A DNA stretch of 64,000 nucleotides from Candidatus Omnitrophota bacterium (GCA_016177405.1 JACOVG010000027.1:14733-78732); one strand, 5' to 3'. Positions 4,947 to 29,521 are shown, counted from the stretch's first letter. A program made the numbers and translations. The notes: generated by a model not told the origin, from the sequence alone.

Positions 4947-4971
4947 AATAAACTCTCTAACCCGGTTACGG

Positions 4972-5580
4972 ATGGCTTACTATCCCGTCTTTCTTGAGCT
5001 GAAGGGCCGCTTGTGCCTGGTGGTGGGGGGCGGCGAGGTGGCCTATCGGAAGGCCCACAGCCTCGCCGGCTGCGGGGCGAAGGTCGAGGTGGTCGCGCCC
5101 AAACTCCACCCCGGACTCCGGCGCCTCGCGGAACGCAAGAAGATCCGCTGGGTCCGCGGCTTGTTCCGTCAGGCGCACTTGAAGGGGGCCGATCTGGTGA
5201 TTGCGGCGACCGACGAGGCGCGGGTCAACACCGCGGCCTCGGCCTGGGCCAGGAAGCGGGGTTTGTGGATCAACGTGGTGGACCGGCCTTCGTTGTGCTC
5301 TTTCATTGTTCCATCGGTCGTCCGGCGGGGCAAGCTCGTCTTCGCCGTTTCCACCGGCGGGGCGAGCCCGGCGCTGGCCAAATGGATCCGGAGGGATCTT
5401 CAGGCCCGTTATGGCCCGGAGTTCAAAGGGCTGCTCGCGGCAATCGCCAAGGTCCGCGGGAAGGTGCAACGCAGGGTGCTCGGCCTCCGGCAGCGCAAGA
5501 AACTTTTTGAAGAGGCCCTGGCGGCCTACTTCAGGGTGATACAAAACAATGCCGATCGCGGTTCTCGGATTAAACCATAA
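4972..5580 (+). CDS. Precorrin-2 dehydrogenase / sirohydrochlorin ferrochelatase N-terminal-domain protein (SirC/Met8-like)
   Basis: 202 aa. Rossmann motif VVGGGEVAYRKAHSLAGCGAKVEVVAP is typical of the CysG N-terminal domain or SirC. It is adjacent to hemA. Confidence 0.7.
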   Translation: MAYYPVFLELKGRLCLVVGGGEVAYRKAHSLAGCGAKVEVVAPKLHPGLRRLAERKKIRWVRGLFRQAHLKGADLVIAATDEARVNTAASAWARKRGLWINVVDRPSLCSFIVPSVVRRGKLVFAVSTGGASPALAKWIRRDLQARYGPEFKGLLAAIAKVRGKVQRRVLGLRQRKKLFEEALAAYFRVIQNNADRGSRIKP

Positions 5581-6577
5581 AACAGCCCCGGTAGAGCTTC
5601 GGGAGCGGCTGGCCTTTCAGAAGGAAAGGGTGCCGGAGGCGCTGGCCCGCCTGCGCCGGGAGCTTCACATCCCGGAGTGCGTGATCCTCTCCACCTGCAA
5701 CCGGGTGGAGCTGTACGCCTTCCTGCCGGAACTGAACGGCCATCACCATCGGCTCAAGGAATTCCTGGCCCGCTTCCATCAGGTGGAGCCCCAGGCGCTG
5801 GGCGACCGGCTCTATTGGCATCTGGAGCCCTCCTCCATCCGGCATCTGTTCCGGGTGGCCTGCGGCCTGGAGTCGATGGTGGTGGGGGAATCGGAGATCC
5901 TCGGTCAGGTGCGCGAGGCCTACCAGAAGGGAGTTTCCTGCGGCAGCGTGGGCGAGGTGTTTCACCGGCTTTTTCAGACGGCCTTGAAAACCGGAAAGGC
6001 CGTTCGCTCCAAGACCCGGATCGGGCAGGGGGCCGTGTCGGTGAGCTCGGCCGCCGTGGAGCTTGCCCGCCGGATTTTTCAGGACTTGCCGACGAAGACC
6101 GTCCTCACGCTGGGAGCGGGCGCCATGGGAGAGGCGACCCTCCAGTCTCTGAAGGACCAGGGGTTGGGCCGGGTTTTGGTGGTCAACCGCTCTCCGGAGG
6201 CGGCCCGCCAGCTGGCGGCCGTCTTCGGCGGGGAGGCCGTGGCCTGGGAAGATCTGGAGGCCGCGGTGGTCCGCGCCGACATCGTGATCTGCTCGACCGC
6301 CTCCGACCGCTATCTTTTGACCCGCCGCCAGGTTCAGCCCCTCGTGTCGAACCGGCCCCAGAGGCCCCTGTTTTTGATCGACATCTCGGTTCCGCGCAAC
6401 CTCGACCCCGCCATCGGCGATCTGGAGAATGTCCATCTCTACGACATCGACGATCTGGAGGAAATCGCCCTGGCCAACCGGAGGATGCGCTTGAACGAGA
6501 CGGGGGCGTGCACCCGGATCCTTGAGGAGGAGCTGGAACGCTTCCTGATCCGGTTCAGCGGCTCCCTGGCCTCATGA
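5549..6577 (+). CDS. hemA: Glutamyl-tRNA reductase (short form)
   Basis: N-terminus MPIAVLGLNHKTAPVELRERLAF and catalytic-region motifs (ILSTCNRVELY). At 342 aa it lacks the usual C-terminal dimerisation extension. Confidence 0.8.
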   Translation: MPIAVLGLNHKTAPVELRERLAFQKERVPEALARLRRELHIPECVILSTCNRVELYAFLPELNGHHHRLKEFLARFHQVEPQALGDRLYWHLEPSSIRHLFRVACGLESMVVGESEILGQVREAYQKGVSCGSVGEVFHRLFQTALKTGKAVRSKTRIGQGAVSVSSAAVELARRIFQDLPTKTVLTLGAGAMGEATLQSLKDQGLGRVLVVNRSPEAARQLAAVFGGEAVAWEDLEAAVVRADIVICSTASDRYLLTRRQVQPLVSNRPQRPLFLIDISVPRNLDPAIGDLENVHLYDIDDLEEIALANRRMRLNETGACTRILEEELERFLIRFSGSLAS

Positions 6578-7167
6578 CCCCCGCCGACCCGGCACCCTCC
6601 CCGTCCCCCCCGGCGCCCAAGGGACCCGTGAAGTCGGCCCAGCAGGTCGAGGTGGACGAATCCAAGGTCTGGTCCTTGTGGTTCACCCGGCGGGAGTTCC
6701 TCACCCTGGCGGCCTGGGGAGCCTTCCTGGCCGGGTTGGCCGGGACCCTGCTGTCGGCGCTTCGTTTTTTTATCCCCCGCGTCACGTACGATCCCCCATC
6801 GGTTTTCAAGGTGGGCAAGCCGGAGGATTTCTCCCCGGGGGTGGTGGACGAGCGGTGGAAGAAGAAATACCGGATCTGGGTGGTGCGGGACGCCCCGGAG
6901 GCCGGAAGCGGGATCTACGCGATCTTCGCCCGCTGCACCCATTTGGGCTGCACCCCCAACTGGCTGGAGGGGCTGAACAAATTCAAGTGTCCCTGCCACG
7001 GCTCCGGCTTCAGGAGGGGGGGCGTCAATTTTGAAGGGCCCGCCCCCCGGCCCCTGGAGCGCTGCCGGGTGGCGCTGGCCGACGATGGGCAGATCGTGGT
7101 GGATGTCAACACCCGCTTCAAGAATCCCAAGGACTGGAAGCGGCCGGACGCTTATCTGAAGGTATGA
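6574..7167 (+). CDS. Rieske 2Fe-2S subunit of a cytochrome bc-type complex, with a twin-arginine signal
   Basis: 197 aa. [17 protein letters not shown] is a Tat-type signal. Rieske boxes CTHLGC and CPCHGS are both present. Confidence 0.85.
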
Positions 7168-8678
7168 AGCTCGCCGACCTCGCCCGCGCCATTCGGACCT
7201 CCGCGGTCTGGAAATCGGTCTTCCGGCACGGCTATCAGGACACCCCGCGCAACCGGGCCCTGATGGTCCTCTCCAACGTCTTCCTGCACCTGCACCCCGT
7301 GAAGGTTCGGCCGGCCTCCTTGAGGTTCCGCTACACCTGGGGCCTGGGGGGGTTGTCCTTCTACCTGTTTTTGCTGCTGACGGTGAGCGGGGTCCTCCTC
7401 ATGTTTTACTACCGGCCGACCGTGGACCACGCCTACTGGGACATGAAGGATTTGAGATTTGTCGTTCCCTTTGGCTCCTTCTTGAGAAACATCCACCGGT
7501 GGTCGGCCCACGTGATGGTCCTTTTCGTCATGTTCCACATGATCTCGGTTTTTTACCGAAGCGCCTACAAGGCGCCCCGCGAGTACAACTGGGTGGTGGG
7601 GGTGATCCTGCTTTTGATCACTTTTCTGCTCTCCTTCACGGGGTACCTGCTGCCGTGGGATCAACTGGCCATCTGGGCGGTGACGGTGGGAACCAACATG
7701 GCGGCCAACACGCCCCTCCTGGGGGCCGAGGGGCCCTTCGCCATCGTGACCGCGGACAACGACGCCCGATTCATCCTGCTGGGCTCCAAGATCGTGGGAG
7801 AGGCGGGCCTGATCCGCTTCTACGTCCTGCACTGCGTTCTGCTTCCGCTTTTCTTCATCGGCTTTGTTTCGGTCCATTTCTGGCGGGTGAGAAAGGATGA
7901 GTTCTCGGCCGTGCCGCTGCCGCCCCGGGAGGAGAGGGACCGGGGGGTCAGGCCCGAGGAATGGCTCAAGGCCCACCCGGAGGCGCAGGCCCGGAAGGTC
8001 TTCACCTGGCCCAACCTCGTCTCGCGGGAGTTCGTGGCGGCGCTGGTGGTGACCGCGGGGCTCTCGATCTGGTCGGTCATCGCCCACGCGCCGCTGGAGG
8101 AGCTGGCCAACCCCAACAAGACGCCCAACCCCTCCAAGGCGCCCTGGTACTTTGTGGGGCTTCAGGAGCTGCTCGTCTATTTTGATCCCTGGATTGCCGG
8201 GGTGGTCCTGCCCACGATGATTCTGTTGGGGTTGGCCGCGCTCCCGTACCTCGACCCCAACCCCCGGGGGATCGGATACTACAACTTCCGGGACCGGAAG
8301 TTCGCTTCCGGGATCTTCACCTACGGCATCGCGTTGTGGTTCATCCTGATCGGGATCGGCTACTACCTGCGTGGTCCCGGGTGGGAGATCTACTGGCCCT
8401 GGGAGCCGTGGGACCATTTCCGGCCGGCCTCCTCGGTGGGGCTTTCCAACCTGCCGAACGGCCTTGGGATTCTCTTCCTGCTGGCCTACGGGGCTCTGGG
8501 GATGCTTCTTCCCAAGCTCTGGTTCAAGAATTTCTACAAGCAGCTTGGGCCCTTGCGGTATCTGCTCGTGATGTTCTTTGTGCTGGGGATGTTCTTTGTG
8601 CCGGTCAAGATGATTCTGCGCAACGTCTTCAGGATAAAGTACATTGTGAGCTTGCCCGATTTCAACCTCAACATATGA
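7164..8678 (+). CDS. Cytochrome b subunit (b6/b-type, N- and C-terminal domains fused)
   Basis: 504 aa, polytopic. Conserved His-bearing helices ([32 protein letters not shown]). Translationally coupled to the Rieske gene. Confidence 0.8.
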
Positions 8679-11964: not shown

Positions 11965-12582
11965 TCAGACCTTCAGGATTTTCTTCGCGGCGGCGGCGCC
12001 GTCGGCGTTGATCTCGTAGACCATCGGCACCCCGGTGGGAATTTCCAGGGCGAGGACCTCTTCCCTCGACAGGTGATCCAGCTCCATGACGATGGATCGC
12101 AGGGAATTGCCGTGGGCCGAGACCAGCACATCCCGGCCGGCCTTCAGGTCCTTGACGATCCGCGACTGGAAGAAGGGCAGCGTCCGGCCGGCCGTGTCCT
12201 TGAGCGATTCCCCGCCGGGCGGGGCCGCGTCGTAGCTTCGCCTCCAGAGCTTCACCTGCTCCTCGCCGAATTTCTTCCTCGTTTCATCCTTGTTGAGCCC
12301 CTGCAGATCGCCGTAATGGCGCTCGTTGAGGGCGGGGTCCTTGACGACCGGGATCCTTTCCTGGCCGAGAACGGACAGCAGGATGACCAGGGTCTCCTGC
12401 GCCCGGATGAGAGCCGAGGTGTAGGCCAAGTCAAAGGAAATCCCCAGCGCCCGAAGCGCCTCGCCCGCCTTCCGGGCCTCTTGACGGCCGCCATCGGTCA
12501 GGGGGACGTCGATCCAGCCGGTGAACCGGTTCTCCAAGTTCCACTGCGATTGCCCGTGACGCACGAGCGCTAAAGCGGCCAT
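11965..12582 (-). CDS. gpmA: 2,3-bisphosphoglycerate-dependent phosphoglycerate mutase (histidine phosphatase family)
   Basis: 205 aa. N-terminus LALVRHGQSQWNLENRFTGWIDVPLT carries the catalytic RHG motif. SLRS motif and C-terminal region present. Confidence 0.8.
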   Translation of the reverse strand: MAALALVRHGQSQWNLENRFTGWIDVPLTDGGRQEARKAGEALRALGISFDLAYTSALIRAQETLVILLSVLGQERIPVVKDPALNERHYGDLQGLNKDETRKKFGEEQVKLWRRSYDAAPPGGESLKDTAGRTLPFFQSRIVKDLKAGRDVLVSAHGNSLRSIVMELDHLSREEVLALEIPTGVPMVYEINADGAAAAKKILKV

Positions 12583-12766
12583 AGGTTTCTATCCCCTTTT
12601 TATTTTTGATCTTACACATTTGGATAGGCCTTGACAACTAAAAGGTCGCATGCTATTCTCCCGTAATATTTTTGAGGCGCATTTTGCGTTGGCGATGATC
12701 CCCGAATCGCCCGTTTAGGGTGTGTTGGACTGGCGAAAGATGGTATGCCAACGAGAAGGAGGGTCG

Positions 12767-13441
12767 ATGAACTGGATCGTGCAAGCAGCGACGGATTCCG
12801 TGAGGGCGATCTTTACGCGGGTAGGCAACTTCATTCCGACCTTGCTGGGTGTCTTGATCATCCTGGTGGTCGGTTGGCTGGTTGCCGGCTGGCTGCAGCG
12901 ACTGCTGGTGGGGGCCCTGAAGGCCATCCGCCTGGATGATTTGGCTCATACGGCTCGCATCTCGGACATCTTGAAGAAGGGCGAGGTGAAGTATTCCCTC
13001 TCCGAGCTTCTGGGGATCTTCCTCTATTGGCTCGTCATCCTGGCTACGCTTCTGGCCGGGCTCAACGCGCTGGGCCTGACCATGGCGGCCGAGCTGCTGG
13101 AGAAGGTCTTGGCCTTCGTCCCGAGCGTCCTGGCCGGCGTCATCGTGCTGGTGCTGGGGCTCTTCTTTGGGACGCTGGTGTCGGGAATCGTTCAGACGGC
13201 AGCGGCCAACGCGGGCATCTCCCAGGCCAAGGGCTTGGGCCAGATTTCAAGGGTGGTGGTGATTCTCTTTGCCGTGGCGATCGCGCTGGAGAAGTTCTTC
13301 AGCTCGATCATCATCCAGACCACCTTCACCGTTGTTCTGGCGGCGGTCGCCTTCGGTTTTTCCCTGGCCTTCGGCTTAGGCTGCAAGGAAATCGCCGGCA
13401 GGGCGGTGGGCGATTTTCTGGACAAACTCCGAGGGAGATAG
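12767..13441 (+). CDS. Membrane protein with repeated conserved-TM-helix segments (MscS-N-terminal-like)
   Basis: The start is set at the ATG preceded by GAAGGAGG (MNWIVQ...). There are four or five hydrophobic helices. No catalytic motif is recognisable. Confidence 0.5.
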   Translation: MNWIVQAATDSVRAIFTRVGNFIPTLLGVLIILVVGWLVAGWLQRLLVGALKAIRLDDLAHTARISDILKKGEVKYSLSELLGIFLYWLVILATLLAGLNALGLTMAAELLEKVLAFVPSVLAGVIVLVLGLFFGTLVSGIVQTAAANAGISQAKGLGQISRVVVILFAVAIALEKFFSSIIIQTTFTVVLAAVAFGFSLAFGLGCKEIAGRAVGDFLDKLRGR

Positions 13442-13480
13442 TCGGCCTCCCATCGGCTTACCTACGACCTTAAGAGAAAA

Positions 13481-13520
13481 AGAGGGGCTTCCGGACAAGG
13501 GAGCCCCTCTTTGTTTTTTC
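13481..13520 (+). terminator. Rho-independent terminator
   Basis: GC stem GAGGGGCT / AGCCCCTC with a loop, followed by TTTGTTTTTT, directly after the stop of the membrane-protein gene. Confidence 0.7.
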
Positions 13521-13534
13521 CGCGGAGGGGCGGG

Positions 13535-14557
13535 GTGAAGATCGGCATGACGTTCGACCTGAAGACCGAGTACGTCTTCCATCCGGGCGACCCCCAGGAC
13601 GCCAACGCCGAGTTTGATCATCCCGACACGGTGGGCGTCATCGCCCAGGCCCTGAAGGACCTGGGGCATGAGGTGGTCCTCATCGGGAACGCCTCCAAGC
13701 TGATCGAGAGCCTGGACCGGCTGAAGGTGGATCTGGTCTTCAACATCGCGGAAGGGTACTTCGGGCGCAACCGGGAGGCCCAGGTGCCGGTGCTTCTTGA
13801 GATGAGCGGGATTCCCTACGCGGGATCGGACGGCCTGACCCAGGCCCTCACGCTGGACAAGGTGATGGCCAAGAAGATCCTGCTGGCCGAAGGGATCCCC
13901 ACCCCCCGCTTCTTCCAGATGGCGAGCGCCCAGGATCCGGTGCCGTCGGATCTGGCCTTTCCCCTCATTGTGAAGCCCCGTTGCGAGGGATCCAGCAAGG
14001 GCCTTTCGGAAAAATCCCTGGTGCATGAGGCGGACGCCCTCCGGGCCCAGGCGGCCGTCCTCATCCGGACGTATCACCAGCCCGCCCTGGTGGAGGAGTT
14101 CATCTCCGGCAGGGAATTCACCGTGGCCGTCGTGGGCAACGAGCCCCCGGAGGCGCTGCCCGTTGTCCAGATCAAGATCGAAGGCCAGACCGAGCTGGGC
14201 AGCCTCTTCTACACCTTTTCCCGGATCGCCGCCGGCGTGGAGTATCTGTGCCCCGCGCGGATCGATCCCGGCCTGACGGAGCGCTTGAAGGAGCTGGCCC
14301 TGCGGACCTATCAAGCGGTGGATTGCCTCGACTTCGGGCGGGTCGATTTCCGGGTGGATGAGAAGGGAAATCCCTTTGTCCTGGAGATCAATCCGCTGCC
14401 CTCCCTCTCCACCGAGGATGTCTTTATGGCGGTGGCCCGCGCCCTGGGAATCGGCTATCCGGAGATGATCGGCCGGATTGTGGAGGCGGCGGCCCAAAGG
14501 CTCGGGATCCGGGCCAAGACTCCTTCCGAGATGCCCGCCGCGAGGAGCCGCCGTTGA
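13535..14557 (+). CDS. ATP-grasp ligase of the D-alanine--D-alanine ligase family (first of a tandem pair)
   Basis: N-domain (VVLIGNASKLIESLDRLKVDLVFNIAEG) and ATP-grasp core (PLIVKPRCEGSSKG, EEFISGREFTV, LEINPLP). Start chosen at the GTG 5 nt after GGAGGGG. The supplied ORF starts earlier, inside the terminator T-run. Confidence 0.75.
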   Translation: MKIGMTFDLKTEYVFHPGDPQDANAEFDHPDTVGVIAQALKDLGHEVVLIGNASKLIESLDRLKVDLVFNIAEGYFGRNREAQVPVLLEMSGIPYAGSDGLTQALTLDKVMAKKILLAEGIPTPRFFQMASAQDPVPSDLAFPLIVKPRCEGSSKGLSEKSLVHEADALRAQAAVLIRTYHQPALVEEFISGREFTVAVVGNEPPEALPVVQIKIEGQTELGSLFYTFSRIAAGVEYLCPARIDPGLTERLKELALRTYQAVDCLDFGRVDFRVDEKGNPFVLEINPLPSLSTEDVFMAVARALGIGYPEMIGRIVEAAAQRLGIRAKTPSEMPAARSRR

Positions 14558-15834
14558 CGACCTCTTTCAAGATTGCCCTCGTCCATAACCTGAAACCTCC
14601 CGTCAAGTCGAAGCATCTTCCCGAGGACTATTACTCCGAGTGCGACAGCGCCAAGACCGTGGAGGCCATCGCCCAGGCCCTGAAGAGCGCTGGGCACAAG
14701 GTTTTGCCGGTGGAAGCGGACGCCCGGCTGCCCAAATGGCTGGGGGAGAATCCGGTGGACGGGGTCTTCAACATCGCCGAGGGTTTCGAGGGAGGATCGA
14801 GGGAGGCCAGGGTGCCGGCCCTGCTGGAGCTCATGGGCATCCCCTACACCGGCTCGGGGGTGCTGACCCTGGCCCTGGCGATGGATAAGTACCGCTCCAA
14901 GCAGATCTTCAAGGCCCAGGGGATTCCCACCCCCCACTTCCAATTGTTTGAGCATCCCGGCGAGAGTCTGGACAAGCGGCTGCACTTCCCTTTGATGGTC
15001 AAGCCCAACGGGGAGGGTTCCGCCAAAGGGATCTGGGCTTCCAGCGTGGTCTGGAATGAGGAGGCCTTGGCCCATCAGGTCGCGCGGGTCCAGAGGGCTT
15101 ATCGTCAGGAGGTTTTGGTGGAGGAGTTCATTGAGGGCACGGAGCTCACCGTGGGAATCCTGGGGGCCGATCAGCTCCTGCCCGTCCTGGAGATCGATTT
15201 CTCCAATTGCCGGGCCTCCGGAGAATCCTTCTATTCCTGGCGGATGAAGGAATTCCAAGGGGATAAGGCGCAGCACCTGAATCCCAGCTTCCACTGCCCC
15301 GCCCGCCTGTCCGAGGAGGTGACAAGGGCCGTGGCCTCCGTGGGCCTCAAGGCCGCGCGGGCCCTGGGGTGCCGCGATCTGGTCCGGGTGGACATCCGGT
15401 TGTCCACGGAGGGCATCCCCTTTGTCTTGGAGGTCAACCCCCTGCCGGGCCTGGATCCCGCCGAGTCGAACCTTCCCGTCATGGCCCAGGCGGCCGGGAT
15501 TCCTTACGAGGTTCTCATCAACCGCATCTTTGGATTCGCGATGGAACGGGCCTTGGCTCAACACCACCTATCCTTTTATCCCTTATCCCCTTCAACCCCG
15601 AGGCCCCAGGAGCCTCAACCCACCGGAAAGGAGAGGGCCGCTCTTCGCCCGAAAGCCGACAAGGCGAACGGCAGCGGAAAACGTCAAGCCGTTTCGCGCG
15701 CTTCGGTTCCGCGCGGGAGCGAACGGCAAGTTTCCCCCCTTTCCCAAGGGCGTCGAACGTCTGGCCGGCTGTGCGAGGATCGACCCCCGCCGCCCCGCCA
15801 GACCCATCCGAAGGAGGAAGACCTTGGACGATAG
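14554..15834 (+). CDS. ATP-grasp ligase of the D-alanine--D-alanine ligase family (second of the pair), with a low-complexity C-terminal tail
   Basis: TTG start overlapping the upstream stop (TTGA), preceded by GAGGAG. ATP-grasp core (FPLMVKPNGEGSAKG, EEFIEGTELTV, LEVNPLPG). Residues after about 330 are proline/arginine-rich low complexity, so the true 3' end is uncertain. Confidence 0.7.
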   Translation: MTTSFKIALVHNLKPPVKSKHLPEDYYSECDSAKTVEAIAQALKSAGHKVLPVEADARLPKWLGENPVDGVFNIAEGFEGGSREARVPALLELMGIPYTGSGVLTLALAMDKYRSKQIFKAQGIPTPHFQLFEHPGESLDKRLHFPLMVKPNGEGSAKGIWASSVVWNEEALAHQVARVQRAYRQEVLVEEFIEGTELTVGILGADQLLPVLEIDFSNCRASGESFYSWRMKEFQGDKAQHLNPSFHCPARLSEEVTRAVASVGLKAARALGCRDLVRVDIRLSTEGIPFVLEVNPLPGLDPAESNLPVMAQAAGIPYEVLINRIFGFAMERALAQHHLSFYPLSPSTPRPQEPQPTGKERAALRPKADKANGSGKRQAVSRASVPRGSERQVSPLSQGRRTSGRLCEDRPPPPRQTHPKEEDLGR

Positions 15835-17083
15835 CTACCGTCGTATCCGGCCCTGGAGGGATGTCTCCGAGGCGGAGTGGGAGGATTGGCATTGGCAGCT
15901 TCGCAATCGCCTCTACACCGTCGAACAGCTTCGGGAGGTGATTCACCTGACCCCCGAGGAAGAAGAGGCGGTGAGCCGCAAGGATGGGAGGCTTGTCATG
16001 GCGATTCCCCCCTACTGGGCGAGCCTGATGGATCCGGCGGATCCCCACTGCCCCATCCGGCGCCAGGCGGTTCCGTTGACCGACGAATTCGAGATTAAGG
16101 CCAACGACATGCTGGATCCCTGCGGGGAAGACAGCCACATGCCGGTGCCGGGCCTGGTTCACCGCTACCCGGACCGGGTGTTGTTCCTCGTGACGGAGCA
16201 GTGCGCCATGTACTGCCGTCACTGCACCCGCCGAAGGCTCGTGGGGGTCAACCACGGGCTCATGAACCATTACGAGCCTGCCTTCGACTACTTGAGAAAC
16301 CACCCGGAGGTTCGGGACGTCCTGATCTCCGGCGGCGATCCCCTCATGATGACCGACGTCCGGCTGGATAAAATCCTCACCGCCTTGAGGGAGATTCCCC
16401 ATCTGGAGTTCATCCGGATCGGGTCGCGCACCCCGGTCACCATGCCCCAGCGGGTGACGCAAGAGTACGTCGAGGTCTTGAAGAAGCACAAGCCCATCTG
16501 GATGAGCCTCCATTTCTGCCATCCCAAGGAGGTGACGCCGAGGCTCAAGAGGGCGATGGACCTGCTGGCCGACGGCGGGGTTCCCTTGGGTTCCCAGACG
16601 GTGCTTTTAAACGGCATCAACGACGAGCCCGCGGTGATGAAGAAGCTCATGCACGAGCTCCTGAAGGTCCGGGTGCGGCCCTACTACATCTACCAGTGCG
16701 ATCCGGCCCAGGGGATCAGCCACTTCAGGACGAGCGTCGAGAAGGGGGTCCAGATCATCGAGGCGCTGCGCGGGCACACGTCCGGCTACGCGGTTCCCAC
16801 CTTCGTGATCGACGGGCCCGGCGGCGGAGGCAAGATTCCCATCAGCCCCAACTATGTGATCTCCTACCAGGACGGGGTGATCCGCATGCGCAACTACGCC
16901 GGGAAAACCTACCTCTACTACGAACCCGGCTCGGAGGAGAAAGAGCTGGTTCCGGCCTCCGGATCCGCCGCCGTGCGCCAGGTCAAGAGAACCAACGGTT
17001 CCGGCAACGGAGCCAACGGTTCCCGTAAAGGGACCAACGGCTCCGGAAAAGGAGTGAACGGCTACCCGGAGTTCCTGCCCTAA
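15824..17083 (+). CDS. kamA: Lysine 2,3-aminomutase (radical SAM, PLP-dependent)
   Basis: Signature CAMYCRHCTRRR cluster motif. N-terminal EWEDWHWQLRNRL typical of KamA. TTG start 6 nt after AGGAGGA. At 419 aa it matches full-length KamA rather than the shorter EpmB. The C-terminus has an NGSG-rich tail. Confidence 0.85.
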   Translation: MDDSYRRIRPWRDVSEAEWEDWHWQLRNRLYTVEQLREVIHLTPEEEEAVSRKDGRLVMAIPPYWASLMDPADPHCPIRRQAVPLTDEFEIKANDMLDPCGEDSHMPVPGLVHRYPDRVLFLVTEQCAMYCRHCTRRRLVGVNHGLMNHYEPAFDYLRNHPEVRDVLISGGDPLMMTDVRLDKILTALREIPHLEFIRIGSRTPVTMPQRVTQEYVEVLKKHKPIWMSLHFCHPKEVTPRLKRAMDLLADGGVPLGSQTVLLNGINDEPAVMKKLMHELLKVRVRPYYIYQCDPAQGISHFRTSVEKGVQIIEALRGHTSGYAVPTFVIDGPGGGGKIPISPNYVISYQDGVIRMRNYAGKTYLYYEPGSEEKELVPASGSAAVRQVKRTNGSGNGANGSRKGTNGSGKGVNGYPEFLP

Positions 17084-17102
17084 GGCCCCGGCTTAAGTTC
17101 TC

Positions 17103-17138
17103 GGCCCCCAAACTTGCCTATGTTTGGGGGCCTTTTTG
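17103..17138 (+). terminator. Rho-independent terminator
   Basis: GGCCCCCAAAC / GTTTGGGGGCC stem followed by TTTTT, directly after the kamA stop. Confidence 0.75.
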
Positions 17139-17154
17139 ATAGAATAGCTACGCC

Positions 17155-18672
17155 GTGAACGAACTTCCCTCCCGCAAGGATTTCGTTGAGCTCAAGAGGC
17201 GTGACCGTTGGATACCGGTGGCCGTTTCCTTGCCGCTGCCTGCCGGCACGCACCCGATCCTTACCACCCCGCCCTTTGAGGCCCCCTGGGTTCTTCTGGA
17301 GTCGGCCCGCCGGCATCCCCTGACCGGACGTTTCAGCATCTGGGTTGGCGAGCCGGAGGCGCTCCTGTGGGCCCAGGGGGATGATGTTTGGTTGAAGGCG
17401 GGCGCGCGCGCCGAGCGCCTCCACGAGAACCCGCTGGATGCCTTGACCAGACTCCTGGCCTTGAAGCCGGCCGTCCGGCTGCCGGGTTTTCCTCCCTTTG
17501 TGGGAGGGGCCGTGGGCTTCTTGGGCTACGACGCCTATCGGTACACGGCGCCGCTTCCGGGCCGGGCCCCCGATGACTTCGGCGGGCCGGACCTGGCCTT
17601 CCTCTTTGTGAATGAGGCGATCGTCCTGGATCACCTGGAGGAGAGGCTTTGGCTCATGGCCTTGGCCGACCCGGCTCTTCCCCCTTCGAAATCGTACGAT
17701 CAGGCCCTGGGCCGGATCGAGGTTTTGAAGAAACGCCTCGAGGTTTCTCTCCGCCAAAGAGCGTTGGCAGAGAGGGGGGACGCGCCTCAAGTTACCTGCA
17801 CCCACACCCGCGCTTCATTCGAGGCGATGGTCCGGCAGGCGAAGACCCACATCGCGCGGGGGGAGATTTATCAGGCCAATCTCTCCCAGCGCTTTGCCCT
17901 GCCTCTTCCGGAAAACCCCTGGGAGCTTTACCGCGCCTTGAGAAGGATCAACCCCTCTCCTTTTGCCGCCTTCGCCGATTTCTCCGGCACACCGATCGGC
18001 GGAGGATTCAGGATCATCAGCGCTTCGCCCGAGCGCCTCTTGAGGGTCCGGGGCCGGAAGGCGGAAACCCGCCCCATCGCCGGGACCCGCCCCCGGGGCG
18101 AAACGAGGGAAGAGACCCTTCGTCTAAGGAAGGAGCTCCTGTTGAGCCCCAAGGAGCGCTCCGAGCACCTCATGCTCGTGGACCTGGAAAGAAACGATCT
18201 GGGCCGGATTTGCCGCTACGGTTCGGTCCGGGTGGACGAGTGGATGGCCCTGGAGGAATATTCCCACGTCGTCCACATCGTTTCCAACGTGCAAGGAACG
18301 CTTCGTCCCCAGGTGGGAGCAGCCGAGGCCATGGCCGCCATGTTCCCCGGGGGGACCATCACCGGATGCCCCAAGATTCGCTGTCTGGAAATCATCGACG
18401 CTCTGGAGCCGGTTCGGCGGGGGCCTTACACCGGGTCGCTGGGATACGTCAGCTACACCGGGGATTTGGACTTCAATCTGCTCATCCGCACCGCGTGGAC
18501 GATCGGCGAGAAGCTCTATTTCCAAACCGGCGCCGGGATCGTGGCCGATTCGGATCCTTCCTTCGAGTACGAGGAGACCCTTCACAAGGCCCAGGCCTTG
18601 ATGGAGGCCTTTGGACTTGAGCTCCATGACGAAGTGCCCATTGCCGGACTGCACACCGCCGCCGCCCTTTGA
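17155..18672 (+). CDS. pabB: Aminodeoxychorismate synthase component I (chorismate-binding enzyme; PabB/TrpE family)
   Basis: 505 aa. IARGEIYQANLSQRF and GGTITGCPKIRCLEIIDALEPVRRGPYTGSLGY motifs. Its position upstream of a class IV aminotransferase favours PabB over TrpE. GTG start only 10 nt after a TAGAAT box, so the leader is short or absent. Confidence 0.75.
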   Translation: MNELPSRKDFVELKRRDRWIPVAVSLPLPAGTHPILTTPPFEAPWVLLESARRHPLTGRFSIWVGEPEALLWAQGDDVWLKAGARAERLHENPLDALTRLLALKPAVRLPGFPPFVGGAVGFLGYDAYRYTAPLPGRAPDDFGGPDLAFLFVNEAIVLDHLEERLWLMALADPALPPSKSYDQALGRIEVLKKRLEVSLRQRALAERGDAPQVTCTHTRASFEAMVRQAKTHIARGEIYQANLSQRFALPLPENPWELYRALRRINPSPFAAFADFSGTPIGGGFRIISASPERLLRVRGRKAETRPIAGTRPRGETREETLRLRKELLLSPKERSEHLMLVDLERNDLGRICRYGSVRVDEWMALEEYSHVVHIVSNVQGTLRPQVGAAEAMAAMFPGGTITGCPKIRCLEIIDALEPVRRGPYTGSLGYVSYTGDLDFNLLIRTAWTIGEKLYFQTGAGIVADSDPSFEYEETLHKAQALMEAFGLELHDEVPIAGLHTAAAL

Positions 18673-19381
18673 CGCTGCCGGCGTCTTCGAGACCTGCCGG
18701 GTCAAGGGAGGGAAGATCCTCCACTTGAACGAGCATCTCCTGCGCCTGGCGGCTTCCTTGAAGACCCTTCGGCTGGACCCCTTGGATCGAAAGGAGCGGG
18801 AGGGTCTTGAGACGTCGGCCCGCGAAGTCCGGGATGGCTTTGTCCGGATCGCGGTCTCTCGGTCCAAGGCTCCAAGGGTCTTGATCCATCGGCACCCGGG
18901 CCTGCCGTACCCCAAATCGCTTTACCGCCGGGGAATCTCCATCCACACCGCCGCGACGCGCGAGCCCCATCCCGAAGCGGCGCCGGCCGGCGCCAAATGT
19001 TCCGAACGCCTCTCGAGTGTCCTGGCCCGCTGGGAATGGGCCGGGGACCGGGAGGTCCTGCGCCTGGGGGCCTCGGGTTTTCTCACCGAGGGGACGTCCA
19101 GCAACCTCTTTATGGTGAAGCACCGGACCCTGCGCACGCCCCCCGCCTGGCTGGGCGTTCTGGAGGGAGTCACCCGGGCCCTGGTTTTGAAGGAGGCCCA
19201 TCGCCTGGGGCTGGCGGCCCAGGAGGTTCCGATCACCCGGCACGAACTCTTCAATGCCGAGGAGGCCTTTCTCACCAATGTCCTGATGGGGATCCTTCCC
19301 CTTCGAAGCGTGGATGGCCGGAGAATCGGAACCCGCGCCCCCGGCCCGGTGACCCGGCGCCTGATGCGAGAGCTCTCGTGA
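18611..19381 (+). CDS. pabC: Aminodeoxychorismate lyase (class IV aminotransferase fold)
   Basis: FETCRV..G.ILHLNEHL.RL N-terminal pattern and class IV fold motifs (EAFLTN). The exact start is uncertain because of the overlap with pabB. Confidence 0.65.
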   Translation: MDLSSMTKCPLPDCTPPPPFDAAGVFETCRVKGGKILHLNEHLLRLAASLKTLRLDPLDRKEREGLETSAREVRDGFVRIAVSRSKAPRVLIHRHPGLPYPKSLYRRGISIHTAATREPHPEAAPAGAKCSERLSSVLARWEWAGDREVLRLGASGFLTEGTSSNLFMVKHRTLRTPPAWLGVLEGVTRALVLKEAHRLGLAAQEVPITRHELFNAEEAFLTNVLMGILPLRSVDGRRIGTRAPGPVTRRLMRELS

Positions 19382-20949
19382 AGCGGATTCGCAGGGCCCT
19401 GGTCAGCGTCTCCGACAAGGAGAACCTCATCCCCTTTGTGCAGGGCTTGAGGCGCTTAGGGGTACAGATCATCTCCACGGGCGGAACCGCCAAGCTTCTT
19501 AAGGACGCGGGGATCCCGGTCAAGGCGATCGCGGAATTCACCGGTTTTCCGGAGATCCTGACCGGACGGGTGAAGACCCTTCACCCCAAGGTGCACGGCG
19601 GCATCCTGATCAGCCGCGCCAACCGGCGGCATTTGGCCGAGGCCAAACGCCTGGGGCTTGAGCCGATCGACCTGGTGGTGGTGAACCTGTATCCCTTCGA
19701 GGAGACCGCCGCGCGGCCGGGCGTTTCTTGGGCGAAGCTCATCGAGCAGATCGACATCGGCGGGGTGGCCCTCATGCGCTCGGCGGCCAAGAACTTCTCT
19801 TCGGTCGGCGTGGTCACCGCTTCCTCCCAATATCAGGAGGTTTTAAGAGAGCTCAATCAGCGGGGGGGACAGCTCACCCACGCCACCCGGATGAGGCTCG
19901 CGGTGGAGGCCTTTTCCCAGTGCGCTTATTACGACGCGGTGATCCATCAGGTCTTGGCCCACCGACAGGGCCCCAGCCGCCGGAGCGATGGGCCTTCCTT
20001 GCTGGTCTTGGCCGCCAGAAAAAGGCAGACCCTGCGCTACGGGGAGAATCCGCATCAACCAGGTTTCTGGTACGAATGGCCCAGGCTCACCGGCGGGGCC
20101 CTTGGGATAAGCGGCGCCAGGCAATTGCACGGTAAGGAGCTTTCCTTCAACAACCTGCTGGACCTGGACGCGGCCCTCTCCATGGCGTCCGGATTCTCCA
20201 AGCCCACGGCCGCGGTGGTCAAGCACGCCAATCCCTGCGGGATCGCTTCGGCGGCCGCGCTTTCCCGGGCCGTGGCCAGGGCCTTCGCCACCGATCCGGT
20301 CTCCGCCTTCGGCGGGATTGTGGGGGTTAACCGGCGGGTTGACCCAGCCGCCGCGCGGGCCATCGCCGGAAGCGGCTTCTTGGAGTGCGTGGTCGCGCCG
20401 GGTTTCAAGCCGGAAGCCCTCCGGATTCTCACGGTGAAGAAGAATCTGCGCGTCCTGGAGGTCCCCGGATGGGGCAAGGCCCGGGGCCGGAACTGCGTGG
20501 ATTTCAAGCCCATCGGGGGAGGGCTCCTCGTCCAGGGGCCGGACCGAATCTTGAAACCTCCTTCCCGCTGGCGGGCCGCCACCTCGGCCAAGCCCACCGC
20601 CAGCCAGATGCGCGATCTCCTTTTTGCCTGGAGGGTTTCTCAACACGTCCGCTCCAACGCCATTGTGGTGGTCAAGGACGAAGCGACGGTTGGAATCGGG
20701 GCCGGCCAGCCGAGCCGGGTGGACAGCGTCCGGATCGCGCTGAAGAAGGCCGGCCGGCGGGCGCGGGGCGCGGTCTTGGCCAGCGACGGTTTCTTCCCCA
20801 AGCCGGACGGCCCGCGGCTTGCCGTCCGGGCGGGGATCGCGGCGATTGCGCAGCCGGGCGGCTCGATCCAGGATCCCGCGGTCATCCAGGCGGCGCAGCG
20901 GGCCCGCGTTCCCATGCTCATGACCGGAGAGCGCCACTTCCGCCATTAG
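19378..20949 (+). CDS. purH: Bifunctional AICAR transformylase / IMP cyclohydrolase
   Basis: GTG start overlapping the pabC stop. MGS-like N-domain (RALVSVSDKENLIPFVQGLRRLGVQIISTGGTAKLL) and AICARFT domain. The supplied ORF extends further upstream into pabC in another frame. Confidence 0.85.
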   Translation: MKRIRRALVSVSDKENLIPFVQGLRRLGVQIISTGGTAKLLKDAGIPVKAIAEFTGFPEILTGRVKTLHPKVHGGILISRANRRHLAEAKRLGLEPIDLVVVNLYPFEETAARPGVSWAKLIEQIDIGGVALMRSAAKNFSSVGVVTASSQYQEVLRELNQRGGQLTHATRMRLAVEAFSQCAYYDAVIHQVLAHRQGPSRRSDGPSLLVLAARKRQTLRYGENPHQPGFWYEWPRLTGGALGISGARQLHGKELSFNNLLDLDAALSMASGFSKPTAAVVKHANPCGIASAAALSRAVARAFATDPVSAFGGIVGVNRRVDPAAARAIAGSGFLECVVAPGFKPEALRILTVKKNLRVLEVPGWGKARGRNCVDFKPIGGGLLVQGPDRILKPPSRWRAATSAKPTASQMRDLLFAWRVSQHVRSNAIVVVKDEATVGIGAGQPSRVDSVRIALKKAGRRARGAVLASDGFFPKPDGPRLAVRAGIAAIAQPGGSIQDPAVIQAAQRARVPMLMTGERHFRH

Positions 20950-20951
20950 TT

Positions 20952-22319
20952 GTGACTTATCCTGAAGCGATTCAATACCTCAACACCCTGCCGAATTACG
21001 AACAGCTGACGGCCTACCGGTACGGGGAGGCCTTGGGGCTGGACCGGATCGAAAGCCTCCTTCGCGGGCTTGGGAATCCCCACAAGAATTTCGCCTCGCT
21101 TCATGTGGCGGGGACGAAGGGCAAGGGCTCCACCTGCGCCTTTGCCGCCTCGATCCTTCAGGCGCTGGGCCGGAGGGTCGGCCTCTACACCTCGCCGCAC
21201 CTCGCCTCGCTCCGGGAGCGGATTCAGGTGAATGGCCGGCCGGTCACGCCGGAGCGATTCGCCGAAACGGTCCAGGCCGTCATGCCCCGCATGCCAGGAA
21301 ATCTCACCTTCTTTGAAGCGACCACCGCCTGCGCCTTTCTCTATTTCGCGCGGGAGCGGGTGGAGGACGCCGTGATCGAAGTGGGTCTGGGCGGCCGCCT
21401 GGACGCCACGAACGTCATCGCCCCCGCGGTCAGCGTGGTCGCCCCGATCAGCCTGGACCACACGGACAAGCTGGGTTCCTCCCTGGGCGAGATCGCAGGG
21501 GAAAAGGCGGGAATCATCAAGCCGGGGACGCCCGTCGTTGTTTCGCGGCAGCCGAGGGAGGCTTCCCAGGTGATCGAGGCGGCGGCCCGGGCGCTTCAAG
21601 CCCCCGTGCACCGCTTGGAAGAAGAGATTCAGATTGAAGGGGTCCGCGTTTCCACCGCCGGCAGCCGGGTTTCCTTTCGGACGCCCCGCGCCTTTTACCC
21701 CGATCTGCTCATTCCCCTGCTGGGCCGCCACCAGATCGCGAACGCCGCCTTGGCCGTTCGGGCGGTTGAACTCGCCCGGCCCGAGGTGGAGGTGCCGAGG
21801 CTGCTGTCGGCGGTTCGCGAGGGATTGGCCGAAACCCGGTGGCCAGGGCGCTGTCAGCTCGTTCCGGGCTCGCCGCCTATTCTGCTGGATGGGGCGCAGA
21901 ATGGGGCCTCGGCCGAGGTGCTGGTGTCGGCGGTTCGGGAGCTCTTCCCGGGGCGCAGGGTGATTGGCGTCGTCGGGATTTCAGGGGATAAAGACATTGC
22001 GGGGATCGCCCGGGTTTGGGGCCCCTGGATGAGCGAGCTTATTCTGACCCGGGCGCAAGCGGCCCGCGCGGAATCTCCCGAGCGGTTGGCCGAGGCTTTT
22101 TCTCAATGGCACCCCAGGCCCCATCTTGCCGCTCGCGTGCCCGACGCCCTCGAGCTGGCCAGGGGCAGGTCCCGCCCAGACGATCTGATGGTGGTGGCCG
22201 GTTCTTTGTTCTTAGTCGGCGAAGCGCTGGAGGCCCTGGGGCGGTCTAGCGGCGGCGCCTTCGAAGCTTCCGGGTCAGAAAGAGGATCCCGCCCAGGGCT
22301 CCATACCCTACCTGGATGA
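20952..22319 (+). CDS. folC: Folylpolyglutamate synthase / dihydrofolate synthase
   Basis: GTG start 3 nt after the purH stop (VTYPEAIQYL). Mur-ligase P-loop HVAGTKGKGST and YTSPHL motif. Confidence 0.8.
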   Translation: MTYPEAIQYLNTLPNYEQLTAYRYGEALGLDRIESLLRGLGNPHKNFASLHVAGTKGKGSTCAFAASILQALGRRVGLYTSPHLASLRERIQVNGRPVTPERFAETVQAVMPRMPGNLTFFEATTACAFLYFARERVEDAVIEVGLGGRLDATNVIAPAVSVVAPISLDHTDKLGSSLGEIAGEKAGIIKPGTPVVVSRQPREASQVIEAAARALQAPVHRLEEEIQIEGVRVSTAGSRVSFRTPRAFYPDLLIPLLGRHQIANAALAVRAVELARPEVEVPRLLSAVREGLAETRWPGRCQLVPGSPPILLDGAQNGASAEVLVSAVRELFPGRRVIGVVGISGDKDIAGIARVWGPWMSELILTRAQAARAESPERLAEAFSQWHPRPHLAARVPDALELARGRSRPDDLMVVAGSLFLVGEALEALGRSSGGAFEASGSERGSRPGLHTLPG

Positions 22320-23978: not shown

Positions 23979-24117
23979 CCCGTCTAGTTTCCCACAGATG
24001 CCAGGTGCCCGCAAGACCCCAGGTCGCGAAACACGTTAATAGGAATAGAAATCTCGTGTACACACTTGATTATTTCGAGGGCATCAGGTAGGCTTTTTGT
24101 ATGGGTCGAATTCCGCC

Positions 24118-28267: not shown

Positions 28268-29521
28268 ATGCGACTCTCCCAATGCCCTGGCAAAGTCTTC
28301 AGCGTGAGGGTTGTTGCCACTTTTCTGGCCCTGAGCCCCATTCTGTCTGCGCCCGCCCTTGCCCTGCGTGACCCAGAAGCGCGAGAGAAGAAGCCGGAGG
28401 TTCTGGGTGGTCTGGAGGAGGTTCTTCGCGGCGATCCCACTACTTCTGCAACGGCTCCTTCCGCGGCTGTCTCCCTAAGCTCCGCCGCCGGGCTGGAGGA
28501 GGGGTATCGGGTGGTACCTGTGACGGAAGAGTACGCCCTGCGGCACGCGGAGGAGTTGGCGGCCATCGATGCGGGGGATCCCGTGTGGAAGAAGGAAGGG
28601 CGTTGGGGTCCGGAGCGTTTCGCCACGGACGTGCGGCCTACCACGGGGACGCGGCTACAGGGTCTTTGGAAGTTCAGCTTCGTTGCGGAGGATGTTTCGG
28701 GGATTCCCGTGGCCTATATCTACGCAGCCGATGGCCAGCCGGACATCCCCGTGACCGCAAGGTACCGCGGGGCGTTTATCGCCCGGGTGAGTGTACGGCC
28801 GAACCAACAGGGACGCAGATTGGGCCCGCGTCTTCTGTTGGCCGTCGCCCGCGCGGCGAAGGAAGCTGACGTAGGTCCCTACGTGACGCTGGAAACGGAC
28901 AAGGAGAACACCCGCGCCCGCCATGTGTACGAGTCACTGGGTTTTCGGAGCGTCGGGGAACGGCTTGAAGAAAAGAAGGGAGTTACTTTCATCGAGTACG
29001 CTGTTCTTGTAGAAAACCTCATCCAGCGCGCGGAGGAGAAGCTCGCCGCCGGCCTGGAGGAGTGGGTGCCGAGGTGGCTGAAGGGACTGGCGACGCCTGA
29101 GGAGTTGGAGCATTGGATTCATCATGGGCACGAAGCCCTGGCGGGGTCTCCGTCGGTGGCGGTGCTGTTTGATCCGGGCTTGGTGCCTGGGAGGGACGAC
29201 GGGGATCGGGAGCTGTTGCTGCTCGAACTGGAGGGACAGATGCGGTCGGTGTTTGCCTTGCCGGAAGAGGTACGGTTCCGGATTGGACTGCGGGGGGCGA
29301 AGGCGGATTGGGAAAGAGAATTCCGGATTATCGAGGTGGTGCGGCATCCGGAAGGCAGGCCGGAGGCCCCTCCCCTTCCGATGGGTGCGTTGCCGTTGGT
29401 GGTTGCGGAGGCGCTGGCCTCTCCCCACCCGCGGTTCTATACCGACCCGCTGATTTACGCCGATTTGACGGAGCTTACCCTGCCGCAGGCCCTGACGGAC
29501 CTGACGGATCTGTTCGCCTGA
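28268..29521 (+). CDS. GLEE-punctuated family protein: leader, GNAT acetyltransferase domain, unknown C-terminal domain
   Basis: Leader ...PALA-LRDPE. GLEE at aa 48, 75 and 262. Canonical GNAT motif A (ARVSVRPNQQGRRLGPRLLLAV) and motif B (YESLGF). TATAAT lies 12 nt before the ATG and there is no SD. Confidence 0.65.
   Translation: MRLSQCPGKVFSVRVVATFLALSPILSAPALALRDPEAREKKPEVLGGLEEVLRGDPTTSATAPSAAVSLSSAAGLEEGYRVVPVTEEYALRHAEELAAIDAGDPVWKKEGRWGPERFATDVRPTTGTRLQGLWKFSFVAEDVSGIPVAYIYAADGQPDIPVTARYRGAFIARVSVRPNQQGRRLGPRLLLAVARAAKEADVGPYVTLETDKENTRARHVYESLGFRSVGERLEEKKGVTFIEYAVLVENLIQRAEEKLAAGLEEWVPRWLKGLATPEELEHWIHHGHEALAGSPSVAVLFDPGLVPGRDDGDRELLLLELEGQMRSVFALPEEVRFRIGLRGAKADWEREFRIIEVVRHPEGRPEAPPLPMGALPLVVAEALASPHPRFYTDPLIYADLTELTLPQALTDLTDLFA

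Follow-up and report, generated by a model that had tools for sequence, protein, structure and literature searches.

Gene organization of the locus

The window analyzed here is a stretch of 64,000 nucleotides from Candidatus Omnitrophota bacterium (GCA_016177405.1, JACOVG010000027.1:14733-78732), and the unit under study consists of three plus-strand genes spanning positions 13535-17083, named lig1, lig2 and kamA. The first two encode ATP-grasp ligases of the Ddl (D-alanine--D-alanine ligase) family and the third a short-form lysine 2,3-aminomutase, a combination that would link the formation of beta-lysine to its ATP-dependent ligation. Relatives were collected from GTDB, where each species was represented by a single genome, and from a metagenome scan, and the two sources gave 100 loci in total, designated by L numbers where they have to be told apart; the metagenome scan produced at least 600 candidate stretches, of which at least 589 encode a relative.

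The lig1 gene (13535..14557, + strand) encodes a ligase of 340 amino acids belonging to clade A of the tree described below. It starts with GTG at 13535, with the Shine-Dalgarno (SD) site GGAGG at 13525-13529 six bases ahead, and stops with TGA at 14555-14557. The predicted N-terminus, MKIGMTFDLK, agrees with the consensus of its orthologues (M-x-I-G-M-T-F/Y-D-L-K), which fits this start. The lig2 gene (14554..15834, + strand; 426 amino acids, clade B) starts with TTG at 14554, is preceded by the SD site GAGGAG at 14542-14547 and stops with TAG at 15832-15834, so that the lig1 stop and the lig2 start overlap as TTGA, the three bases of the lig1 TGA being common to both genes. The kamA gene (15824..17083, + strand; 419 amino acids) starts with TTG at 15824 after the SD site AGGAGG at 15812-15817, and ends at 17083. 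Its first 11 nt lie within lig2, and both this overlap and the KamA N-terminus MDDSYR recur in L005, L006 and L002. The initial annotation had described coupled tandem ligases with a TTGA overlap and their own SD sites, followed by kamA, and each of these sequence-level statements was confirmed. We regard the three genes as translationally coupled, and they would be produced together.

The aminomutase

The kamA product, which contains CAMYCRHCTRRR, is approximately 57-60% identical to the lysine 2,3-aminomutase of Clostridium subterminale and aligns with the structure PDB 2A5H over residues 6-368 (E 3e-144), with the Pfam domains Radical_SAM (S-adenosylmethionine) and LAM_C. The CxxxCxxC radical-SAM motif is present as CAMYCRHC, aligned to C125, C129 and C132 of 2A5H, and Arg134, Asp293, Asp330 and Lys337 (2A5H numbering) are all kept; the same residue signature is found in 48 of the 49 complete ligase-linked KamAs. 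In 2A5H, Arg134 binds the carboxylate and Lys337 the pyridoxal phosphate (PLP), and Asp293 and Asp330 hold the epsilon-ammonium of lysine, positions that are occupied by Lys and Asn in glutamate 2,3-aminomutase. Because these residues and the cysteine motif are kept, KamA should be a radical-SAM, PLP-dependent lysine 2,3-aminomutase that acts on free L-lysine and forms beta-lysine.

AblA (TIGR03820) ranks first among the NCBIfam models, with a score of 508.5 against a cut-off of 525.4 and a match that stops at model position 384 of 417, and the TIGR00238 subfamily threshold is passed (371 vs 199). The EpmB score of 246 falls far short of its cut-off of 369, and the glutamate and arginine aminomutase models are likewise far under theirs; identity as a glutamate or arginine 2,3-aminomutase is excluded by Asp293 and Asp330 together with these model scores.

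The C-terminus is variable. A 21-nt tandem repeat of 3.3 copies (16992..17061, + strand) encodes an NGSG(K/N)G low-complexity tail, and ligase-linked KamAs elsewhere end at about 365-395 amino acids. The tail region (window 16900-17083, and in L001, L002, L005 and L006) is a variable Asn/Gly/Ser-rich linker, and the C-terminus itself is conserved as [FY/I/V][P/Q][DE][YF][LV]P in the Omnitrophota subgroup to which the window belongs and as EPSYAL(A/V/I)(D/Q) in another subgroup. This conserved end may be a docking motif.

The two ligases

Both ligases match Pfam Dala_Dala_lig_C (PF07478; E of about 1e-34), and their best matches are Ddl structures with 24-36% identity. An AF2 model of lig1, built from an Omnitrophota-only alignment, has the Ddl fold with a pLDDT of 87, and its top Foldseek hits are all Ddl structures. 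The residues corresponding to K97, K144, E180, E187, R255, D257, E270, N272 and E15 of DdlB are kept across clades A, B and C. As none of the ATP, Mg or acyl-phosphate residues has been lost and the equivalent of Glu15 is also present, both proteins should be active carboxylate-amine ligases.

In other respects these proteins depart from D-Ala-D-Ala ligases. Their scores against the Ddl models NF002378 (194 and 202 bits, cut-off 243) and TIGR01205 (157 and 181, cut-off 246) are below the thresholds, and every Van model is far under its cut-off too. The HGxxGEDG motif, present in the aligned Ddl enzymes, is absent in all 162 Ddl-like matches from the window and the 100 loci, and the position of DdlB His63 is occupied by Glu (Glu73 in lig1). 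The Lys215-Tyr216 (or His/Phe) dyad of the omega loop is replaced by SRIA in lig1 and MKEF in lig2. In lig1, the pair Glu294-Asp295 (E-D-V) is aligned to DdlB His280-Ser281, Ser281-Leu282 being replaced, and the surrounding motif P-S-L-S-T-E-D-V-F is invariant in 32 orthologues; lig2 keeps a Ddl-like Ser at the D-Ala2 site (E-S-N-L). His280 and Ser281 of Ddl adjoin the D-Ala2 carboxylate. Since an acidic pair sits where Ddl binds this carboxylate, the acceptor of lig1 is probably a cationic, amine-bearing partner that presents an ammonium group and not a carboxylate.

In the tree, the clades formed by the ligases lie apart from Escherichia coli DdlB. No mur/dcw or van-operon context was found around the ligase genes, whose neighbors encode a membrane protein, gpmA, dcd, pabB, pabC, purH and folC, and no second, canonical ddl gene was found in the 64-kb window. 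Judged from their sequences, lig1 and lig2 are not bona fide Ddl or Van enzymes. The initial annotation had proposed comparing the pockets with that of Ddl and had named clustering of the ligases with Ddl and VanA as a finding that would count against its proposal; the substitutions in the pocket, the sub-threshold scores and the separation from DdlB all speak against bona fide Ddl or Van enzymes.

The catalytic core of lig2 comprises approximately residues 1-335, and the remaining 90 or so amino acids form a low-complexity tail (window 15559-15834), which is absent or different in other orthologues (344-426 amino acids). Its C-terminal KEEDLGR is conserved because it overlaps the SD site and start codon of kamA. 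A degenerate GNAT domain was considered for this tail and ruled out, the tail being of low complexity and variable length, with a conserved end that only overlaps the kamA ribosome-binding site (RBS) and start.

Conservation and linkage across genomes

The homologues of lig1 at 59-79% identity all come from Omnitrophota metagenome-assembled genomes (MAGs), and the arrangement lig1-lig2-kamA is present on three long contigs. Across the loci, which were mapped by tblastn and a tree, the linkage count was restricted to the 36 with at least 2.5 kb on both flanks. KamA is adjacent to the ligases in 27 of these 36, and 22 of the 27 have two ligases. The tree resolves four groups, namely clade A (the lig1 type), its sister clade B (the lig2 type), a more distant clade C and a KamA-less clade.

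At least six different gene orders preserve the linkage, which extends over about seven named lineages and is seen in Omnitrophota, Planctomycetales, Phycisphaerales, Krumholzibacteriota, Victivallales, Bacteroidales, Syntrophobacteraceae and Margulisiibacteriota. With K for KamA and letters for the ligase clades, the order is A-B-K in Omnitrophota, and an A-K form also exists. GNAT acetyltransferase genes frequently adjoin the ligase genes or are fused to them. Krumholzibacteriota, Phycisphaerales and Bacteroidales have K-A-C-GNAT (L013 and L018 are examples of this architecture), sometimes followed by a fusion of a second GNAT with an HDAC domain (GNAT'-HDAC), and in Victivallales and Syntrophobacteraceae the clade C ligase is fused to GNAT, such ligase::GNAT fusions being seen in L017 and L020. 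Another arrangement is K-B with C on the opposite strand, and Margulisiibacteriota combine K-A with a RimK-like ATP-grasp protein, an S66 peptidase and an MFS transporter. A further order, found at L057 (5980-12984) and also in L050, L056, L066 and L073, is clade A ligase, histidine kinase, sigma54 response regulator, response regulator, KamA and clade C ligase. The genes inserted in this one lineage between the clade A ligase and the KamA-ligase C pair encode a PAS histidine kinase, an NtrC-type sigma54 activator and a single-domain response regulator, which suggests regulated, possibly nitrogen-linked expression.

The invariable core across all architectures is KamA plus a ligase of clade A or B. 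By a rough estimate, a single-copy gene would lie within approximately 6 kb by chance in well under 1% of loci. Because the linkage survives rearrangement and is accompanied by gene fusions, these comparisons constitute strong evidence that KamA and the ligases share one pathway. Conservation of the KamA adjacency in related genomes, which the initial annotation had put forward as a way of checking its proposal, was thus borne out far beyond those genomes, and neither of the two findings that it had named as refuting the proposal was obtained.

Some related loci have no KamA. Single clade A ligases of Nitrososphaerota (L008, L010 and L011), approximately 40% identical to lig1, lie beside a large STAND/AAA_16-TPR protein, and no KamA was found within 6 kb of them. 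In five loci (L094 at 4969-8405, L088, L055, L081 and L093), a KamA-less tandem Ddl-like pair is followed by a gene for a Peptidase_S58 (DmpA/BapA-type aminopeptidase). These S58 neighbors hint that the ligase superclade makes unusual (beta- or D-) aminoacyl small peptides more generally.

Proposed pathway

We propose that KamA would turn free L-lysine into beta-lysine (3,6-diaminohexanoate) and that lig1 and lig2 would use ATP to convert a carboxylate to an acyl-phosphate, which would then be joined to an amine. Conserved gene linkage and intact catalytic residues suggest that the ligases would build beta-lysine into an amide-linked product, and translational coupling would supply the two ligases in a fixed ratio. 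The product would most likely be small and soluble, a di- or tri-(pseudo)peptide that contains beta-lysine. In most other lineages, KamA and a clade A or B ligase are accompanied by a clade C ligase, a GNAT and sometimes an HDAC-type deacetylase, and the Omnitrophota version operates with two type-1 ligases and no acetyltransferase. That lig1-lig2-kamA builds a small beta-lysine amide or peptide, through KamA and subsequent ATP-grasp ligation, is the reading we favor, with a confidence that only modestly exceeds doubt. Such a product may serve as a compatible solute or as a nitrogen-rich metabolite, or it may be a bioactive peptide; a dipeptide, an oligomer, a solute or a wall precursor would each be a guess.

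Several observations weigh against this proposal. We infer the use of beta-lysine by the ligases from gene linkage alone, and we also infer the order of the steps, the size of the product and its physiological role. The ligases occur without a nearby KamA in 9 of the 36 well-flanked loci, including the Nitrososphaerota archaea and L039; the ligase family is therefore broader than beta-lysine and not strictly bound to it. The Omnitrophota unit has neither the GNAT nor the clade C ligase of other lineages, and its product may therefore differ, possibly as a simpler, unacetylated relative. In KamA, Cys268, which in 2A5H forms the Zn site together with a C-terminal Cys motif, is replaced by Glu, and the clostridial C-terminal domain is absent, with the low-complexity tail in its place; the score slightly under the AblA cut-off is a further point, and this narrow miss of TIGR03820 is explained by these same features of the short form. 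The omega-loop alignment of the ligases is uncertain by 1-2 residues, which makes the pocket assignments soft. Lastly, the closest relatives are groundwater MAGs, which lend no particular support to an osmolyte role.

Alternative explanations

The ligases could instead polymerize beta-lysine, either by itself or together with another amino acid. The resulting oligo- or polyamide, in place of a defined di- or tripeptide, would be a nitrogen store comparable to cyanophycin or a polycation resembling the streptothricin tail. Two ligase activities are needed for cyanophycin-type polymers and lig2 is weakly similar to the ATP-grasp domain of CphA (E 4e-6); in some clusters, moreover, an NtrC-type sigma54 regulator and a histidine kinase are present, S66 peptidases, GNAT and HDAC proteins could manage a cationic polymer, and the GNATs match streptothricin acetyltransferases, but faintly. 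However, the nearest structural relatives are dipeptide-forming Ddl enzymes, lig1 has no primer-binding or extra domains, the likeness to cyanophycin synthetase and streptothricin acetyltransferase is far under the family thresholds, and the Omnitrophota unit has no dedicated hydrolase; we consider polymerization unlikely. More improbable still is an attachment of beta-lysine to a macromolecule or cofactor, such as a protein lysine or C-terminus in the manner of EpmA, a peptidoglycan stem or bridge, or the tail of folate or another cofactor. ATP-grasp enzymes are established modifiers of proteins, cofactors and wall precursors (RimK, TTL, LysX, MptN/CofF, D-Asp ligase), Margulisiibacteriota clusters carry a RimK/LysX-like ATP-grasp gene and an LD-carboxypeptidase-family (S66) gene, and the cluster GNAT is RimI-like, although below threshold. 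In Omnitrophota, pabB-pabC-purH-folC begins shortly after the unit, and lig1 is unusually conserved for an accessory gene (approximately 60-79% identity across the phylum). Against this, the folate synteny is confined to Omnitrophota and has a terminator in between, Ddl-type pockets are small and closed, the aminomutase is of the KamA/AblA type and not EpmB (246 vs 369), and efp, epmA, mur and target-protein genes were found neither in the window nor in L001-L020 (efp was not searched for in L021-L100).

Among the alternatives, the one most clearly contradicted is that lig1 and lig2 are a housekeeping pair of D-Ala-D-Ala ligases, comparable to DdlA and DdlB, with kamA adjacent by chance or for unrelated reasons. 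It draws on the fact that the best database matches are Ddl enzymes and that the 64-kb window holds no other ddl, yet the scores lie under all curated Ddl and Van cut-offs, none of the 162 relatives has HGxxGEDG, the Lys-Tyr dyad is not kept, lig1 has Asp in place of Ser281, the linkage to KamA outlasts changes of gene order in about seven lineages, GNAT fusions occur and a mur/dcw context is missing; we give it very little credence. Just as implausible is a catabolic unit, in which KamA would open a lysine fermentation or degradation route and the ligases would act downstream or be unrelated. Clostridial lysine fermentation begins with KamA, and the kamA gene of Bacillus subtilis sits with genes for an acetyltransferase and a deacetylase, a context that would favor such a role. 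Nevertheless, the neighbors checked included no lysine-fermentation genes: among those annotated in L001, L002, L004 and the window unit there is no gene for beta-lysine 5,6-aminomutase, 3,5-diaminohexanoate dehydrogenase, a cleavage enzyme or a CoA-transferase, and ATP-consuming ligases would be unexpected in a fermentative route.

Flanking sequences and transcription

The unit is flanked on both sides by hairpins with T-runs. The upstream element (13479..13520, + strand), located in the interval 13442-13534, is GC-rich and has an A-tract upstream; its hairpin (13479-13512) has a 14-bp stem with a dG of -29.6 kcal/mol (z -4.4; none of 200 shuffles fold as well), and the T-run extends to approximately 13520, stopping 5 nt short of the lig1 SD site. 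The downstream element (17103..17138, + strand), at which the unit has its 3' boundary, resembles an intrinsic terminator, its hairpin (17103-17132) having an 11-bp stem with 8 GC pairs and a dG of -24.0 kcal/mol (z -5.1; equaled by none of 200 shuffles). No sigma70-like promoter was found between the upstream hairpin and lig1, and an Rfam scan of 12400-17400 at E <= 1 revealed no riboswitch or leader.

The gene immediately upstream (12722..13441, + strand) encodes a small membrane protein with MS_channel_1st_1 helices (Pfam PF05552, E 3.5e-17). This gene also immediately precedes lig1 in L001, L002, L003, L005, L006, L022, L026 and L029 and not in the other A-B-K loci; in L006 it is only 15 nt from lig1. 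Analogous hairpins with T-runs, unrelated in sequence, precede the lig1 RBS in L005 (1990-2105) and L001 (7915-8000) and are missing in L006. This mechanosensitive-channel-like gene was considered as support for an osmolyte role and judged weak, its synteny being confined to one Omnitrophota subgroup.

The upstream hairpin is predicted to terminate or attenuate transcription after the membrane-protein gene and to mark the 5' boundary of the unit; it may act as an attenuator or a bidirectional terminator, and lig1-lig2-kamA may be read through from the upstream gene, that is, be co-transcribed with it. The initial annotation had considered the unit an autonomous operon bracketed by terminators. 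While the flanking hairpins and T-runs were recovered, autonomy found no support, since the stretch between the upstream hairpin and lig1 is too short for a promoter and contains no promoter-like site.

Downstream of the unit, pabB, pabC, purH and folC (window 17155-22319) follow in an order that is conserved in Omnitrophota, including downstream of the unit in L001, L002 and L004. This order is probably plain synteny, with a role of the ligases on a cofactor tail as a less likely reading.

Other features of the window

Three large open reading frames (ORFs), all on the plus strand, were noted elsewhere in the window. The largest (37725-46004) encodes 2759 amino acids with a TPR block at approximately residues 1030-1260, a calcineurin-like metallophosphoesterase at residues 1480-1724 and a weak Fic/DOC match at residues 1855-1931, most of the protein having no Pfam match; the 2-kb bin at its 3' end (44001-46000) has the highest GC skew in the window. 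An ORF of 1002 amino acids (24097-27105) combines sigma-70 regions 2, 3 and 4 with several Xre-type HTH_3 domains, an unusual fusion, and one of 1327 amino acids (54178-58161) carries an ARMT1-like damage-control phosphatase domain, WD40 repeats and a GNAT domain.

Possible significance

To our knowledge, the known fates of beta-lysine are few, namely acetylation to an osmolyte, modification of elongation factor P, fermentation and incorporation into antibiotics built by nonribosomal peptide synthetases (NRPS). It can be speculated, tentatively, that KamA with clade A/B ligases represents a widespread and unrecognized branch of beta-lysine metabolism in Omnitrophota, the PVC (Planctomycetes-Verrucomicrobia-Chlamydiae) and FCB (Fibrobacteres-Chlorobi-Bacteroidetes) groups, Margulisiibacteriota and some Desulfobacterota, with a new class of beta-lysine amides as its product and the status of a core, phylum-wide trait in Omnitrophota. 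Included in this same speculation, and to be read with the same reserve, are two examples of the product: a beta-lysine oligomer or polycation with epsilon linkages, or a beta-lysyl conjugate whose synthesis would require neither NRPS nor tRNA.

If true, the ATP-grasp route would add a new fate of beta-lysine and would give a function to a large conserved group of proteins that are mis-annotated as "D-alanine--D-alanine ligase" or "ATP-grasp domain". It would also make a conserved trait of the uncultivated Omnitrophota accessible to biochemistry for the first time and could provide new ligases for the synthesis of peptides containing beta-amino acids. No long-standing question depends on the unit.

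Comparison with known systems

The ligases share with Ddl and VanA-G the fold, the domain architecture, the ATP/Mg and acyl-phosphate residues and the Glu15 equivalent, and they differ in model scores, the replacement of His63 by Glu, the missing motif, the lost dyad, the Glu-Asp pair of lig1, the genomic context and the linkage to KamA. The L-amino-acid ligases (BacD/YwfE, BL00235, RizA and TabS) and cyanophycin synthetase resemble the proposed activity in that they form di- or oligopeptides from free amino acids by ATP-grasp chemistry, but they are far more distant from lig1 and lig2 than Ddl is, as seen from the weak matches of lig2 to BL00235 (E 5e-9) and CphA (E 4e-6). We know of no L-amino-acid ligase or cyanophycin synthetase that uses beta-lysine or is linked to KamA.

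Actinomycete clusters of the negamycin type co-localize beta-lysine formation with an ATP-grasp amide ligase (bioRxiv 10.1101/2025.05.27.656397). The negamycin cluster depends on three further enzymes, namely a hydrazine-forming heme enzyme, a lysine hydroxylase and an N-methyltransferase. These three enzymes are absent from the Omnitrophota unit, and taxonomic range and architecture are unrelated. The Ngg/AsnO system for N-acetylglutaminylglutamine amide, in which an ATP-grasp enzyme and a GNAT (fused in Ngg) make an acetylated dipeptide osmolyte, is paralleled by the fusions in L017 and L020; it differs in belonging to other ATP-grasp and GNAT families (TIGR03103, 17.5 bits vs 569) and in having no aminomutase, and the Omnitrophota unit, for its part, has no GNAT.

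The same logic is followed in pyrrolysine biosynthesis by PylB, PylC and PylD, where the radical-SAM lysine mutase PylB makes an unusual diamino acid and the Ddl-like ATP-grasp enzyme PylC ligates it to an amine. PylB, however, is a member of another radical-SAM family and does not act as a PLP aminomutase, whereas the window mutase is of the KamA type, and the unit has two ligases and no PylD or dehydrogenase gene; PylC structures were not found among the PDB sequence matches of lig1 and lig2 at E <= 1e-3.

With EpmA-EpmB the unit shares neither the aminomutase type, the EpmB model being below its cut-off, nor the context, as no EpmA-like gene was found among annotated neighbors and, in the window and L001-L020 (L021-L100 were not searched), no efp. 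AblA-AblB, which makes N-epsilon-acetyl-beta-lysine in methanogens and some bacteria, is similar in that a first step of the KamA/AblA type is co-encoded with an enzyme that derivatizes beta-lysine, and a GNAT is also found in the ligase clusters of other phyla. The difference is that the unit would derivatize with ATP-grasp ligases and not with acetyl-CoA, and it has no AblB. The GNAT encoded at 28268-29521 of the window has no AblB match and those of the clusters in other phyla reach 24 bits against a TIGR03827 cut-off of 205, so that identity with AblB was rejected for both; the window contains nothing homologous to the cluster GNAT. The separation from ablA-ablB and EpmAB stated in the initial annotation therefore holds, as does its view that the pathway is not a described one: no account of a unit of KamA and Ddl-like ligases was found in the searchable literature, where an earlier in-silico mention is still possible. 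We contend that the unit is a variant of beta-lysine metabolism in which known enzyme families occur in an undescribed and widely conserved combination.

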